Sequence record: OL451225.1
Reading direction: 5' to 3' (one strand)
Length of the DNA stretch: 64,000 nucleotides
Source of the DNA: Escherichia phage P896
Part shown: piece by piece, positions 4,085-44,539 of the stretch
How the letters are laid out: each line of letters begins with the position of its first letter
Position numbering within the stretch: position 1 is the stretch's first letter
Translations under genes and position numbers: made by a program
Notes under the pieces: model-generated
What the model was told of the DNA's origin: nothing
Database searches by the model: none
What the model saw: the letters and a program-made list of their open reading frames with translations, nothing else

Positions 4085-5662
4085 ATGATTAACAAATTAG
4101 AATTAGCGAATCTTCCGTTTGTCGATGGTGTACCAGAAGCTGACCAGAAACGAATTGAATGGATTCGCAACGGTGATTGCTTAACTGCAGCCACTACCAA
4201 ATACGGGCACGATGGTGCCCTTAACGCCGCAGCTTTTGGTGTACAGACCAACGTTGAAACTCTGGAAAAGAATGACACAACCACTAAGGACAAAGTAAAC
4301 GAAATTGTTGATAGTGTTAACCAGATTAAAGAAGCTCTGGATATTTCCACTGATGCAAGCGTTATCCAACAGATTGAAACCAACCGTCTTAATATTGTAA
4401 GTCTCCAGACGGGTTTAGCCGAAACTGATATTGCTTTACTTGATACCAGCACAAATCTCGGTGAATTACAGGAAGATGTTGGTTATTATAACCCACTGGA
4501 AGATGGGCCATATTTGACCGTTCGTGCTAATATTAACCGTATTAAGCGTGAAATGGGCCATTATGCAAACCAAGATATCAATGGTGACCCATTGCCTGAA
4601 GGCGAAACTAATGATGCCACCGGGATGAAACGTATTATCATCGATAACAGTACAGCAATTGCAACTACGCAACGTCGTCTTACTATTCTCGAGGAAAATT
4701 ACAATGATTCTGATGTAGGCGGTCTTACGATTAAATTAAATGAGATACGCGAAGAATTAGGTCCGCGTATAGAAGGTATTGGTAAATCTCCTGTTTATAC
4801 TCGTTTAACTGCAGTCGAAGCTAAAGCCGGAACTAATGAAACCGATATAGGGAATATCAAAACCGCAATTGGTTTTGGCCAAGGTCAAAGTATCGCAAAC
4901 CGTGTCGGGACTCTGGAAACCAAGGCAACAAATTTAGAAAATACCACTTCTGGTATGAATACAAGATTGTCGAAAGTTGAAACAGATATTGGTACTGATG
5001 CCGAACCGACTTCCATTAATGGCCGTCTAAAAACGTTGCGTGATGACATGACAGGTGTTCGTGTTGTTATCGGGGAAAATACAAGCAGTGGCTTACAGGG
5101 ACAAGTTGTTGCCCTTAACGTTGCGGTAGGTATTAGTGATAGCCCGGCACCGACTTCCTTAATTCCTCGTATGCGTGAAGTCGAAACTTCTAGTCGTGCG
5201 AACGCTGCAGCTATTCAGGATATTCAAGCCGAAATCGGTAACAATCAGTCAGGCATCAAAGGTTCTATCCTGACTATTAAATCACAAATCGATGGGACCA
5301 ACCCAAACGGTTCGACTGTTGTCGAAAAAGGTATTCTCCCGACTGTTGAAGGTCTGGTCAATGAAATGCCGACTAAGCTTAGTGACGCTCCATCTGATAC
5401 GAAGATTTACGGTCGTCGAGACGGTGCTTGGGCCGAAATCGTTGGCGGTGATATTCCCGCTCTAGTATCACGTGTGGATGGTATCGAATCGCGCACCAGT
5501 GGAGCCGAGATACTGATAACTGAACTTGAAGGTAAAGTATCAGCCTTAGAAACAGAGCTCGCCAAAAGGCCTCCTGTCGCGCCTGCAGCTGACGGACTTC
5601 CTTATGTGCTCGTTGATAATGCATGGGTTCTTTTGTCGACATTCGTGACTGTTGGACCATAA
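4085..5662 (+). CDS. wac: fibritin (whisker/neck fibre) Wac
   Basis: 525 aa, long coiled-coil-like central region and C-terminal foldon-like segment ...DGLPYVLVDNAWVLLSTF. Confidence 0.85.
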   Translation: MINKLELANLPFVDGVPEADQKRIEWIRNGDCLTAATTKYGHDGALNAAAFGVQTNVETLEKNDTTTKDKVNEIVDSVNQIKEALDISTDASVIQQIETNRLNIVSLQTGLAETDIALLDTSTNLGELQEDVGYYNPLEDGPYLTVRANINRIKREMGHYANQDINGDPLPEGETNDATGMKRIIIDNSTAIATTQRRLTILEENYNDSDVGGLTIKLNEIREELGPRIEGIGKSPVYTRLTAVEAKAGTNETDIGNIKTAIGFGQGQSIANRVGTLETKATNLENTTSGMNTRLSKVETDIGTDAEPTSINGRLKTLRDDMTGVRVVIGENTSSGLQGQVVALNVAVGISDSPAPTSLIPRMREVETSSRANAAAIQDIQAEIGNNQSGIKGSILTIKSQIDGTNPNGSTVVEKGILPTVEGLVNEMPTKLSDAPSDTKIYGRRDGAWAEIVGGDIPALVSRVDGIESRTSGAEILITELEGKVSALETELAKRPPVAPAADGLPYVLVDNAWVLLSTFVTVGP

Positions 5663-39579: not shown

Positions 39580-41121
39580 TTATTTTAATCCAGTCTTTGA
39601 CCAGTCGCCAAATACATCTTCGAATGTGTCTGCATGGTCTTTATCGAAACGGAACCCTTTGATAATCGGCAGGAACAATGCAACCGTATTATCTTTACGA
39701 GTCTCGGAAGTCAACCAACCATTACATTCACAGTCGGCAATCATTCCAACCAATTCGCCTTTACGGGCTTTAACCATCAAGGCTTCACGGTCCATTTCAT
39801 GACGCTCCTCAATCGGAATAGTAACCCATTTTTTGGTTTTCTTATCTTTAACTTGAGTTGTGTCTTTAAAACCAGAACCACAGTTATTTGTAATCTTACC
39901 ACAAGAAGAACGAAGCACAACACCACCAATCTTATTCGGGTCTTTATCGTGCTCGTAATATCCAATGATTTCCATTGCGATGTCAATTACTTCTTTGAAC
40001 TTGTACAAGTTCTTTGAGCGCTTGTTTTCCCAAATCGATGCCATGTTCTTAAGGATAATACCTTCAAGACCTTCATCCACATATTTCTTATAGATAACCT
40101 TCGCTTCATCGAGATTGTTAACAACATGGTTTTCAATCAGAATCATGCGGTCAAAACCATGCAGCACCACGTTATCTGCAATCATCTTTTCCAGAACAGC
40201 AAAACGCACATCGTATTTTAACGGATTGAGTATCTTAACATCAGAATAGACTTCAATCAATGGAACATAATCCCAAACCTGGAATTTCATGCAAGAAGCT
40301 TCTGCTGCAGAAATAGTTCCTTTCAATGATTTGTTTGCCAGACCATTTGAAAAGGTTCTTGATTCCGCGAATTCTGCGAATTCTTTTGCCTTACTAAGCT
40401 CAGGCATATCGTCAAAAAGGAAGCTCAAACCATCATTCTGGGGAGCTATTTTCTGTTCATGATATACTAACTCGCCGTCAATCAAAACGCCCTCAGGATG
40501 TCTCTCACGCGCTTCACGGGTAGCTTCAATCAATTCCTTTTTAAGGAGGTCAAGCTTGAGGTATTCGTTGCCAGCTCGGGATAACAATCGAACATCATCC
40601 AACTCATCGCCACGAACTTCTGCAAAACACCGAGCGCCGTCGGCTTTCAATTGTGCAAAGGCCGGGAACTTAATGTTCTTGGCAATACCGGCTTCATCAT
40701 AGGAAGAAGCGAGCATCTGCGGTTGTTCAGGAATTAAACCTTTCCAAACCTTATTTGCAATTGATACGGATGCCCCGCATTCCAGGTCACGCATCATAAC
40801 ACGCCGCAGGACTTCAACATCTGCTTTTTTACCATCAGCAATATAGCCAGATAATTCCTCGATTGCAGCATTACCTGTTAATTTACGAGAGGCTAATGTG
40901 AATTCAATAAAGTCAAGCATATCATCGATATTCAGCATACCAAAGCTTTGAGTCGTTGTCCCAGGTTTTGGCCATTTCTTAATATAGAACTGGATGCCTT
41001 TGGAATATGTCAAACGATACACACGTTTGAGGGTTTCATTGTCAGAATACGATTCCAGAATAGCTTGTTTCTCTTTAGTAGAATCGGTTGCAGCAATTTC
41101 ATTTAAAATATCTAAAATCAT
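39580..41121 (-). CDS. 30: ATP-dependent DNA ligase gp30
   Basis: 513 aa; MILDILNEIAATDSTKEKQAILE...; adenylylation motif KADGAR. Confidence 0.95.
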   Translation of the reverse strand: MILDILNEIAATDSTKEKQAILESYSDNETLKRVYRLTYSKGIQFYIKKWPKPGTTTQSFGMLNIDDMLDFIEFTLASRKLTGNAAIEELSGYIADGKKADVEVLRRVMMRDLECGASVSIANKVWKGLIPEQPQMLASSYDEAGIAKNIKFPAFAQLKADGARCFAEVRGDELDDVRLLSRAGNEYLKLDLLKKELIEATREARERHPEGVLIDGELVYHEQKIAPQNDGLSFLFDDMPELSKAKEFAEFAESRTFSNGLANKSLKGTISAAEASCMKFQVWDYVPLIEVYSDVKILNPLKYDVRFAVLEKMIADNVVLHGFDRMILIENHVVNNLDEAKVIYKKYVDEGLEGIILKNMASIWENKRSKNLYKFKEVIDIAMEIIGYYEHDKDPNKIGGVVLRSSCGKITNNCGSGFKDTTQVKDKKTKKWVTIPIEERHEMDREALMVKARKGELVGMIADCECNGWLTSETRKDNTVALFLPIIKGFRFDKDHADTFEDVFGDWSKTGLK

Positions 41122-41396
41122 TTAATATCTCTTCTGGTCATAAAGATTCTATTATAAGCTACTTCATCTTGAAGCTCATTTAAAGTCTTTTGATATGTAT
41201 TAATCCAACGTCTACCACGAGAGGTTGTTACAAAATACTCGGAGATGTAAATAAATCCTTGTTCAACACATTCCATGAATATTTTTTCATATCTAGCTTG
41301 GTTGTATAAAGGCTTTGCTCGTAAGAACTGTGTCACATTCCCGTAATCATGGGTAGAACATCTTCCGTCTGAAATATCATGAACGACAAACATCAA
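41118..41396 (-). CDS. hypothetical protein (30.1 position)
   Basis: 92-aa ORF, ATGA-coupled to the ligase gene. Confidence 0.6.
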   Translation of the reverse strand: MMFVVHDISDGRCSTHDYGNVTQFLRAKPLYNQARYEKIFMECVEQGFIYISEYFVTTSRGRRWINTYQKTLNELQDEVAYNRIFMTRRDIK

Positions 41397-42217
41397 TTAC
41401 CCCCTTGGCCACCGGTCGGTTGGTTGTACCAATATTCAATGCCAGTACCTACGCGTGGACCATATTGATATGGATATGCTGGATTATAACCAGGAGTCCA
41501 TGGTTGACCTGGTTGCCAGCCTTGTTGCATTTGTTGTTGAAGACGGCGAGTTTCACGAAACAGCTCTTCCAGTTTACGGAGTTCATCAGGGGTGAATTCT
41601 GGTTTGACTGGTTCATCTTTGTGTTTCAGTTTAAGCTGCCCAGCTACATCGTCCCAATTAAAAACTTTGGAAGCTGTTTTAGGAATAGCATCACGTTCAC
41701 CACGAGCCATCCAATAAACCGGAATCTCAAGGATTTCACTCGCATGGTCGCAATGGTGTGCAAGGTCATCAATATAACAAACGACATTATATTTGGTCTT
41801 CGCCTTCTGGAATAACTCTTCTTTAGAAGCTGTATGGCCGCACATCATCACTTCTTTAAATGCACCAGGGAACAAAGCATTCAGGTTGAATTGACGATTC
41901 AGACGGGCGTCAATGGAATCACCCAGAGCCGTAACAGCCACAAAATCATATTGCTCTTTGAGGTTATTAATAACCCTTAACGCATCTGCGTAAGGAGACA
42001 AATAGCGAATAAAATCTGAACAGTTATATTTCTCAATCAACTGTGCTCCCAACTCTTCATCACAATTGAACAGTTTACCAGGGGTCACAAATTTTTCATC
42101 CTGAATCATCTTAAGGATATGTTCCAGGGGTAAATTATATTTTTGGGCGAAATAAGGCAAGCCAGACTGCCATGACAAACATACGCCATCAATATCTGTT
42201 AAAATAACGGGTTTCAT
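41393..42217 (-). CDS. HAD-superfamily hydrolase (nucleotidase-like) with Q/P/G/Y-rich C-terminal tail
   Basis: 274 aa; N-terminal ILTDIDGV HAD motif I; C-terminal low-complexity ...QQQMQQGWQPGQPWTPGYNPAYPYQYGP... Confidence 0.7.
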   Translation of the reverse strand: MKPVILTDIDGVCLSWQSGLPYFAQKYNLPLEHILKMIQDEKFVTPGKLFNCDEELGAQLIEKYNCSDFIRYLSPYADALRVINNLKEQYDFVAVTALGDSIDARLNRQFNLNALFPGAFKEVMMCGHTASKEELFQKAKTKYNVVCYIDDLAHHCDHASEILEIPVYWMARGERDAIPKTASKVFNWDDVAGQLKLKHKDEPVKPEFTPDELRKLEELFRETRRLQQQMQQGWQPGQPWTPGYNPAYPYQYGPRVGTGIEYWYNQPTGGQGGN

Positions 42218-42699
42218 AATGCATCTCTCAATTGGTTAAGTATGTCAATAAATTCTTGTTCAGTCAATATTGTATCATGAACAGTAAGGTGACTCGCCAT
42301 CGAATGCTTTAAAACTTTGCCCTTTGTAGCTTGTAATGCGTCGCGGAATCCTTTGTTTTGGAGCGCTGCTTCAAAATAAGCATTTGTATACAACTCTTTC
42401 CATGATGTAGAGTATCTTGAAAAGGGAATTCCAAGCCAGAAAAGCGTCCCACGGTCCGCAGCTCTCGCATAAGCTCTTCCACTTTGCTGGGCGGCCAGGC
42501 CGGACATCCCAAATATACGTTTTTGTTGTTCATGATTTCTCACCTTACACCCTTGCAGGAAGCCTTCAAGACCTCCAAACTGGATGCCCTCCATAACAAA
42601 AGGCCATTTAGCAAAGTTACTTAATGCACATGATGGCCATGGGAAATTGCTTCTGATTTCTAACTCAGACATCTTTGACACTGATAATCTTGGTTGCAT
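42214..42699 (-). CDS. NADAR / YbiA-like (DUF1768) domain protein
   Basis: 161-aa ORF (start may be at MSELEIR, 42672); ...SNFAKWPF...EGFLQGCK... matches the YbiA pattern xSNFAxWP...EHYFQAQKF. Confidence 0.65.
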   Translation of the reverse strand: MQPRLSVSKMSELEIRSNFPWPSCALSNFAKWPFVMEGIQFGGLEGFLQGCKVRNHEQQKRIFGMSGLAAQQSGRAYARAADRGTLFWLGIPFSRYSTSWKELYTNAYFEAALQNKGFRDALQATKGKVLKHSMASHLTVHDTILTEQEFIDILNQLRDAL

Positions 42700-42877
42700 A
42701 CCACATACCGTGGTCCGGTAATCTGGATTTAATTGACCGCCCGCGATATGTTTTTCGCATTACAACAGTCTTAATAGCATCTTCATCACAAGCATATGGA
42801 GGTGATAAATCAATAACACGATAAGTAACTTCAACCATTTCCAAGCCAAACAGCTTTTTAAATAATTTCTTAATCAT
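42665..42877 (-). CDS. small hypothetical protein, tandem paralog A
   Basis: 70 aa; ...EMVEVTYRV.D.SP...IISVKD shared with the neighbouring ORF. Confidence 0.6.
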   Translation of the reverse strand: MIKKLFKKLFGLEMVEVTYRVIDLSPPYACDEDAIKTVVMRKTYRGRSIKSRLPDHGMWYATKIISVKDV

Positions 42878-42886
42878 GAAGGTTCC

Positions 42887-43099
42887 TTAAATATCTTTGA
42901 CGCTGATAATATATACATCAGCCCAATGACCATAACCAGGTAGACGGTCTTTAATAGATAATCCACCGTCAGATTTCAGCATTTTAATTGTTTTAGTATA
43001 TGGTTCAATATTTCGGGCCCATGGACTCACGTCAGTTACGCGATAAGTAACTTCAACCATTTCTGTTCCCAAAATTTTCTGAATCAGTTTCTTAAACAT
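42887..43099 (-). CDS. small hypothetical protein, tandem paralog B
   Basis: 70 aa; paralogous to 42665-42877. Confidence 0.6.
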   Translation of the reverse strand: MFKKLIQKILGTEMVEVTYRVTDVSPWARNIEPYTKTIKMLKSDGGLSIKDRLPGYGHWADVYIISVKDI

Positions 43100-43100
43100 A

Positions 43101-43295
43101 TTATCCTCGCCTTAAACATTTGATTACAGACAGTTCACCGTCCATGCGAACGTCTTCTGTTCCGTCAACCCACAGGACTAGATACGCTTCTTTAATTACA
43201 ATACCACCGAATTTAAAAGCAGGCAAGACCTTAGAAATCATTCCAGGAATACCTACGCCTTTTAACTGGACAGTTTGCGATAGAAATAGTTTCAT
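43101..43295 (-). CDS. hypothetical protein
   Basis: 64-aa ORF packed without gap in the early operon. Confidence 0.5.
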   Translation of the reverse strand: MKLFLSQTVQLKGVGIPGMISKVLPAFKFGGIVIKEAYLVLWVDGTEDVRMDGELSVIKCLRRG

Positions 43296-44424: not shown

Positions 44425-44495
44425 TTTATTCTCCAGTGTTTTATTGTGTAACTCAGTATGGAATCATTATGCACTGGACCAACCCTGTTGTAAAC
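44425..44495 (-). repeat. early promoter + 5'UTR cassette, family A copy 2
   Basis: GTTTAC (44490-44495), 18 bp, CATAAT (44466-44471), leader TTCCATACTGAGTTACACAATAAAACACTGGAGAATAAA-ATG. Confidence 0.6.
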
Positions 44496-44516
44496 CCCTT
44501 TATGGAAAATAAAAAA

Positions 44517-44534
44517 GGGACTCCGAAGAGTCCC
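44517..44534 (-). terminator. intrinsic terminator after the 53-aa gene
   Basis: GGGACTCcgaaGAGTCCC hairpin followed on the minus strand by TTTTTTATTTTCC. Confidence 0.6.
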
Positions 44535-44539
44535 TGAAC

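Follow-up and report, generated by a model that had tools for sequence, protein, structure and literature searches.

What are the two small, similar genes that stand side by side in Escherichia phage P896, how did they come to be two, and what could they do for the phage? They lie in a 64,000-nucleotide stretch of sequence record OL451225.1, called the window here, as two adjacent 70-codon open reading frames (ORFs). A preliminary description, made from the sequence alone, had taken them for tandemly duplicated genes of unknown function in an early operon and had likened them to rapidly evolving host-takeover or anti-defence factors. In our analysis, the two genes, termed copy A (upstream) and copy B (downstream), are diverged versions of T4 gene 30.4, the second of which is physically joined to the start of the anti-defence gene adfN (gene 30.3).

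Two tandem paralogues related to T4 gene 30.4

Both 70-codon ORFs lie on the minus strand of the window, as do all genes around the pair (Table 1), and are separated by exactly 9 bp (GGAACCTTC), as had been described. The proteins are basic (pI 9.3 for A and 9.7 for B) and of about 8 kDa each. Aligned without gaps, they were identical at 38 of 70 residues (54%; BLASTP, E = 9e-23), whereas the top ungapped identity to A among 100,000 shuffles of B was 17/70. The basic N termini and the motifs EMVEVTYRV.D.SP and IISVKD[VI], earlier cited for their kinship, were all present. Moreover, each copy has its own Shine-Dalgarno site: GAGGA for A, predicted to pair with the 16S anti-Shine-Dalgarno sequence at -7.5 kcal/mol, and AAGGA for B, which is made of A's TAA stop codon plus the spacer (-6.1 kcal/mol). 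The similarity thus stood on proper alignment, neither copy lacked translation signals, and A and B were confirmed as genuine tandem paralogues. A third 30.4 copy was not found when A and B were compared with the whole window by tblastn.

Both proteins matched PHROG 2042 over residues 1-70 (E = 1.3e-33 for A and 7.7e-26 for B), and all homologues found carry PF26911 (Phage_T4_Y12I) in precomputed Pfam annotation. Direct scans of A and B against Pfam-A, NCBIfam and PADLOC gave no match at E <= 0.1, the Pfam set scanned being one without the PF26911 model; a NADAR or DarG-like antitoxin domain in A or B was rejected on the same searches. The window is from a T-even phage closest to CJ20, an Escherichia phage of the genus Gaprivervirus (Straboviridae, Tevenvirinae): the surrounding 2 kb agreed with CJ20 at 96.8% identity and matched 713 T-even phage records. 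Window, T4, SP18 and WG01 agree in the gene order 30.8-30.7-30.6-30.5-[30.4]-30.3-30.2-30.1-30, and the gene at the A/B position is annotated as 30.4 in T4 and SP18. Since they share family PHROG 2042 and T4-like synteny, A and B are two copies of T4 gene 30.4 and not genome-specific orphans. The family is therefore already catalogued (T4 30.4, PHROG 2042, Pfam PF26911), although the label of unknown function still fits in that its function is unassigned. Searches of the literature for gp30.4, Q02405 and phrog_2042 returned nothing relevant, numeric gene names making full-text searching noisy. The operon described as early corresponds to the T-even accessory block from 30.8 to 30, and the T4 orthologue is indeed early at both the RNA and the protein level (PMC9697503 supplements).

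T4 gp30.4 (UniProt Q02405) resembles the copies of the window in family, in its position between 30.5 and 30.3, in size (68-72 aa) and in the predicted helix plus three-strand fold, which is common across the family alignment. It also shares the 8-nt stop/start overlap with 30.3, found in the window at copy B. In contrast, the window phage has two copies where T4 and some 700 related phage records show just one, and T4 gp30.4 is acidic (pI 4.6). Copy A further differs from T4 30.4 in having no overlap with 30.3, since it ends in GAT ATT TAA followed by the 9-bp spacer.

Distribution and origin of the tandem pair

Presence in related genomes was assessed by tblastn, which recovered 30.4 in 721 phage records, every one from an enterobacterial T-even phage. 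An exhaustive hidden Markov model search of 1.84 billion representative proteins yielded only three true family clusters, and the family is thus confined to the core T-even genera. Against a background of one copy in about 700 records, two copies were present in only 13 records, corresponding to 12 phages: CJ20, TH44, TH54, TH57 and PSD2001 (Gaprivervirus), WG01, PSD2002, dhaeg and 04086 (Dhakavirus), and fDHCT2 (whose record gives the lineage to class only), LHE83 and ABTNLS3. One metagenome contig likewise contained two 30.4 copies.

The published tandem pairs (WG01 ORF207/208, dhaeg_55/56, PSD2002_0109/0110, CJ20 and TH44/54/57, among others) have the same arrangement and junction as the window, and CJ20 is nearly identical to it overall. 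The pair is thus already in a dozen published genomes, if not always annotated, and A plus B is not new as such; what is new here is a paralogue subtype (B) of a known, catalogued family. In CJ20 there is no coding sequence (CDS) for 30.5, A or B, and in PSD2001 only A of the pair is annotated, with none for B.

Copy A is an ordinary 30.4 allele, 95-99% identical to the sole 30.4 of several relatives. The cassette of its variable segment differs from phage to phage, and three kinds of central cassette were seen in the two-copy phages (WARNIEPY.., VHPQDEPY.. and HTADHLEPY..). Copy B was 94-100% identical across the 12 two-copy phages, and its subtype was found only in these and in A/B chimeras. 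Comparison of the two-copy loci of CJ20, WG01, dhaeg, TH54, PSD2001 and 04086 revealed a common A-B junction, GAT ATT TAA GGAAYCTTC/GGAGTCTTC ATG ATT. This common junction shows a single origin of the pair, which then spread by recombination. One single-copy allele (P0023) has a partly B-like central segment, so that the pair could have come about either by an ancient duplication or by two divergent alleles becoming stacked. The A-B spacer of WG01, GGAGTCTTC, creates a GGAG in the Shine-Dalgarno site of B that is not found with the GGAACCTTC of the window. GGAG is the target motif of the RegB endoribonuclease.

Recombination within the array

A 23-nt block, GAAATGGTTGAAGTTACTTATCG, occurs as an exact repeat twice in the window, once in each copy, where none would be expected by chance; the remaining DNA of A and B is 59% identical. 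In phage 212 and in three metagenome contigs, the sole 30.4 gene is A-type before this block and B-type after it. Unequal crossover within the block is expected to produce exactly this switch by collapsing the pair into an A/B chimera; it explains the single-copy chimeras and shows that the array still recombines.

Divergence and selection

A precise dN/dS between A and B was not computable, because their synonymous sites are saturated (pS 0.75). This saturation implies old copies, and the idea of the duplication as a recent event had to be abandoned. Nonsynonymous divergence (dN) between A and B was 0.41 overall and was unevenly distributed, with 0.22 over residues 1-26, 0.79 over 27-47 and 0.38 over 48-70.

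Within each lineage, the constraint could be estimated. Between B of the window and ten other B copies, dN was 0.015-0.034 and dS 0.25-0.28, giving a dN/dS of about 0.1. For 22 distinct alleles of copy A or of single-copy genes, pN/pS was 0.09 for residues 1-23, 0.59 for 24-47 and 0.18 for 48-70; for the central segment of B it was 0.14. Residues 24-47, the β1-β2 loop plus β2, are thus hypervariable in A-type alleles and fixed in B, so that in the A lineage this central part is either relaxed or diversifying. Both copies are under purifying selection and kept as protein-coding genes.

Identity to T4 was 43% for A and 28% for B, compared with 89% for 30.7, 85% for 30.3, 80% for 30.6, 71% for the ligase, 70% for 30.5 and 66% for 30.2; two neighbours, 30.1 (46%) and 30.8 (40%), are as diverged from T4 as 30.4. 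The earlier characterization as rapidly evolving therefore suits the family, with its low identity to T4 and its hypervariable segment, but not copy B, which is strongly conserved among its own kind.

These values bear on the idea that one copy is a redundant, decaying duplicate heading for loss, with no distinct function. Although the single-copy A/B chimeras show how readily the array collapses, and most relatives manage with one copy, we regard such decay as highly improbable: both copies are intact in 12/12 phages, ten distinct B sequences share the dN/dS of about 0.1, divergence has gone to synonymous saturation without disabling either copy, and each retains its Shine-Dalgarno site.

Predicted structure

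AlphaFold2 models built from family alignments had a mean pLDDT of 89.2 (A) and 86.1 (B) and identical secondary structure: a helix (residues 2-10), a strand (14-23), the variable loop, a strand (34-41), a short helix (49-52), an RLPxYGxW loop and a strand (60-69). The fold is thus confidently predicted as an N-terminal amphipathic helix and a three-stranded antiparallel sheet with a conserved RLPxYGxW loop. Foldseek searches of both models against the PDB gave no match at E <= 0.001, and searches against BFVD returned only the family itself and uncharacterised T4-like proteins of Citrobacter phage Merlin and Escherichia phage EcS1. A comparison of PDB sequences with the family profile gave only noise (SufB, E 0.9).

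The top PDB match for A was the RNA polymerase (RNAP)-interacting protein YkzG (4njc_A; E 0.72, probability 0.69, TM 0.46/0.52), which ranked fifth for B (E 2.1, probability 0.38); neither match is significant, and a T7 Gp2 or YkzG (RNAP epsilon) fold was rejected for want of a significant superposition. These matches, together with the small size and early expression of the protein, are what would speak for gp30.4 as a host-takeover factor directed against conserved core machinery, for example a Gp2- or epsilon (YkzG)-like RNAP binder. We consider such a role distinctly unlikely, as a hypervariable surface with a pI ranging from 4.6 to 9.7 fits poorly with an invariant host target and a fitness effect on K-12 is absent. 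The 30.4 proteins do share class traits with T7 Gp2, T4 Dmd and similar inhibitors, namely a length of 60-70 aa, early expression, dispensability on laboratory hosts, a mixed helix/sheet mini-fold and fast evolution, but resemble none of them significantly in sequence or structure.

The last 30.4 copy is joined to adfN

AdfN of the window is 85% identical to T4 AdfN over 152/152 residues. In every locus compared, including T4, the last 30.4 copy ends in ...GAT GTC TGA with the adfN start codon inside it (ATGTCTGA). This stop/start overlap (…GTC TGA / ATG TCT GA) was found for copy B and for all single-copy genes compared, but not for copy A. At the adfN start, Shine-Dalgarno pairing was only -0.7 kcal/mol, in the window as in T4, i.e., essentially none, compared with -6 to -7.5 kcal/mol at the starts of 30.4A, 30.4B, 30.5, 30.7 and 30.8. 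An overlapping stop and start combined with a downstream gene that lacks a Shine-Dalgarno site is the classical signature of translational coupling. Judging from the ATGTCTGA overlap and the nature of the adfN start, ribosomes finishing 30.4 (here B) would reinitiate on adfN, and translation of the last 30.4 copy probably drives that of adfN.

The closest relatives annotate 30.3 from an upstream ATG, which gives a 161-aa ORF overlapping copy B by 35 nt (window 42665-42699); this over-extended version occupies 4215-4700 in CJ20 and 1679-2164 in PSD2001 (coordinates of the compared regions). The conserved start at ATGTCTGA, giving a 152-aa product, is almost certainly the real one.

30.4 and adfN were strictly adjacent in all of the about 720 T-even records carrying 30.4. 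Homologues of AdfN were present in 1,510 phage records, with 30.4 only where AdfN is at least 80% identical to that of the window (about 720). AdfN and gp30.4 belong to the same operon and their genes are adjacent and overlapping, but gp30.4 lacks both a NADAR domain and any enzyme-like signature, and AdfN is far more conserved (85% identity to T4, versus 28-43% for the 30.4 copies).

Published T4 data on 30.4 and adfN

AdfN (T4 30.3) is a NADAR enzyme that removes the ADP-ribose attached by DarT1 from guanosine (PMC11257639; HIDEN-SEQ preprint, bioRxiv 10.1101/2025.11.20.689424). T4 30.4 itself is non-essential on E. coli K-12, with insertions at 21/21 TA sites (bioRxiv 10.1101/2025.11.20.689424), and had no knock-down phenotype in CRISPRi-ART (PMC11879866 supplements). 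In the transposon sequencing (Tn-seq) data of the HIDEN-SEQ preprint, insertions in T4 30.4 (5259-5465 of the T4 region compared) were depleted on DarTG1, with a log2 fold change (log2FC) of -1.79 (p 0.0001, adjusted p 0.014). The corresponding value for adfN was -7.25 (p 0, adjusted p 0; both from Extended Data Table 6, sheet Control vs DarTG1). The depletion of 30.4 is thus about 3.5-fold, versus about 150-fold for adfN, or about 40-fold weaker. No such effect on 30.4 was seen on DarTG2 (log2FC -0.03, p 0.93, adjusted p 1.0) or in the library-versus-library control (log2FC 0.21, p 0.66, adjusted p 1.0), and insertions in 30.6, 30.7, 30.2 and 30.1 were unaffected on DarTG1 (bioRxiv 10.1101/2025.11.20.689424 tables). 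The authors of these public data do not discuss the DarTG1-specific depletion, and the main text of the preprint nowhere mentions 30.4 (bioRxiv 10.1101/2025.11.20.689424).

The transposon used has no terminator and carries stop codons in all three frames (bioRxiv 10.1101/2025.11.20.689424). An insertion in 30.4 would therefore break translational coupling and leave transcription intact. A polar translational effect on adfN is thus the simplest reading of the DarTG1-specific depletion, which fits coupling to adfN or, possibly, a direct role of gp30.4.

Such a direct role would make gp30.4 a second anti-DarTG1 component, either a binder or inhibitor of DarT1 or a partner of AdfN, with the paralogues covering different DarT1 variants. 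DarG offers a precedent, as it pairs enzymatic reversal with direct binding of the toxin. The restriction of the depletion to DarTG1, as opposed to DarTG2 or the control, agrees with this proposal, as do the strict adjacency to adfN in about 720 T-even records and a hypervariable loop typical of arms-race interfaces. We nevertheless hold it to be unlikely. Ectopic AdfN alone is sufficient, the effect is small beside that of adfN, and a polar effect is simpler given the overlapping adfN start without a Shine-Dalgarno site. Moreover, about 780 other phage records have adfN but no 30.4, and gp30.4 has no similarity to DarG or to PADLOC models.

At the other extreme, the 30.4 ORFs might matter in cis only: as leaders or couplers they would set how strongly AdfN is translated, and the peptides that they encode would be functionless. 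The ATGTCTGA overlap, the adfN start lacking a Shine-Dalgarno site, the DarTG1-specific depletion and the lack of a T4 30.4 phenotype on K-12 would all be accounted for. This seems very unlikely to us, as selection acts on the amino acid sequence (dN/dS about 0.1 for B; 0.09 and 0.18 for the N- and C-terminal thirds of all alleles), both copies have the same confidently predicted fold, early infection yields detectable T4 protein, and copy A, which is not coupled to adfN, is kept in every two-copy phage and has its own Shine-Dalgarno site there.

A proposed combined cis and trans role

Taken together, we lean, at somewhat better than even, towards a joint reading in which A and B are functional tandem 30.4 paralogues that are coupled in cis to adfN and act in trans as binders of a variable host factor. 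In cis, ribosomes from the last 30.4 copy would be delivered to adfN by termination-reinitiation, and this coupling would account for the DarTG1-specific depletion of T4 30.4 insertions. In trans, the 30.4 proteins may be small stoichiometric binders of a variable, probably defence-related host factor, in which a conserved scaffold would hold a specificity loop and two diverged copies would widen the range of targets covered. Early expression, dispensability, rapid evolution and the genes nearby make a trans-acting anti-defence protein or host-factor binder a reasonable proposal.

Several observations weigh against this joint reading. Neither fold nor sequence searches tie the 30.4 family to any characterised protein, and no member has a demonstrated activity or partner. 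The earlier suggestion of a host-takeover or anti-defence factor accordingly lacks any such activity for a family member, but the next gene, adfN, is proven anti-defence, and the DarTG1-specific depletion offers a hint that lost coupling to adfN explains equally well. AdfN alone is reported to be necessary and sufficient for DarTG1 resistance (PMC11257639). The mean pN/pS in the variable segment is raised yet below 1, so that positive selection is not demonstrated. Family members differ in net charge, from about -6 (T4) to +6 (B), and this spread speaks against a shared electrostatic mode of action, for example the binding of nucleic acids or the mimicry of DNA. A hairpin sequestering the adfN start or the start of B was rejected, as RNA structure there did not go beyond shuffled controls (z = -0.12 and -0.19, respectively). 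Finally, adfN of more distant T4-like phages (Krischvirus, Slopekvirus, Jiaodavirus, Tegunavirus, Lazarusvirus, Angelvirus and Citrobacter phage Ci1) is preceded by a gene unrelated to 30.4, which ruled out 30.4-like genes beside adfN there. The pairing of 30.4 with adfN is thus lineage-specific, and any link to AdfN in trans would be so too.

Neighbouring genes and features of the block

Table 1. Position of the 30.4 pair and of surrounding features in the window
Feature	Position	Strand	Basis
30.4 copy A, upstream paralogue, 70 aa + stop	42887..43099	-	ORF list, sequence, PHROG 2042
30.4 copy B, downstream paralogue, 70 aa + stop, pI 9.7	42665..42877	-	PHROG 2042, sequence
A-B spacer, 9 bp, GGAACCTTC	42878..42886	-	sequence
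23-nt block GAAATGGTTGAAGTTACTTATCG within copy A	43041..43063	-	exact repeat
23-nt block GAAATGGTTGAAGTTACTTATCG within copy B	42819..42841	-	exact repeat
Stop(B)/start(adfN) overlap ATGTCTGA, putative translational-coupling junction	42665..42672	-	sequence
adfN (gene 30.3), NADAR-type anti-DarTG1 ADP-ribosylglycohydrolase, 152 aa, full length	42214..42672	-	Pfam Phage_30_3, E = 7.7e-64
Gene 30.5, 64 aa, upstream neighbour of copy A	43101..43295	-	PHROG 1690, E = 1.6e-28; T4 synteny
Gene 30.6		-	PHROG 2153
Gene 30.7		-	Pfam Phage_T4_Gp30_7
Gene 30.8, 5' end of block		-	Pfam Phage_30_8
Gene 30.2	41393-42217	-	PHROG 420
Gene 30.1		-	DUF3045
DNA ligase gene 30, 513-aa ORF beyond 30.1		-	synteny; CJ20, T4 and SP18 annotations
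Terminator-like hairpin (44516-44535), then sigma-70-like promoter (44466-44494), 5' of 30.8	44466..44535	-	consensus scan only

Upstream of 30.8, a strong terminator-like hairpin (AGGGACTC…GAGTCCCT plus a T-run) is followed by a TTTACA-17-CATAAT site about 40 nt from the gene. This hairpin and promoter probably bound and start an early transcription unit that extends from 30.8 to 30. Further ATGA overlaps on the minus strand are shared by 30.3/30.2 (42214-42217) and 30.1/30 (41118-41121), where the downstream Shine-Dalgarno sites are weak (-2.9 kcal/mol); in view of these overlaps and weak sites, translation may be coupled from gene to gene through much of the block.

Gene 30.5 was ruled out as a distant third paralogue, its hhalign probability against the 30.4 alignment being 0.2%. 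Its 64-aa product has a pattern, G.V.LKG.G.PG.I.KV…Y.V.WVDG…ELS.I, that recalls small SH3/Tudor-like beta-barrels, and a short variable patch of its own at residues 28-33. Inside adfN, a 74-codon ORF in another frame (42309-42533, minus strand) is the positional counterpart of the T4 internal gene 30.3'. The 30.2 protein gave a weak match to HAD_2 (E = 0.049, below the Pfam cutoff) and has a low-complexity C-terminal tail rich in Q, G, P, Y and W (…QQQMQQGWQPGQPWTPGYNPAYPYQYGPRVGTGIEYWYNQPTGGQGGN); WG01 and other Dhakaviruses have a much shorter 30.2 (639 nt).

Implications

To what is known of T4 30.4, this analysis adds the restriction of the family to the core T-even genera and a conserved scaffold built around a cassette-like hypervariable segment. 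It also adds a distinct, conserved B subtype that occurs only as the second tandem copy or in A/B chimeras, and the physical joining of the last 30.4 copy to an adfN start without a Shine-Dalgarno site. If the effect of 30.4 insertions is only polar, the lesson concerns the way in which adfN is expressed and the risk that a 161-codon mis-annotation of 30.3 swallows copy B. If 30.4 acts in trans, it would be a new anti-defence protein. That gp30.4 is specifically a trans-acting anti-DarT1 factor, a toxin binder or AdfN cofactor whose hypervariable loop tracks DarT1 diversity, is a long shot; if true, phages with A and B would carry a two-specificity anti-DarT module joined by translational coupling to the repair enzyme AdfN, and phages would thereby have a counterpart of the dual enzymatic and binding antitoxin mechanism of DarG.

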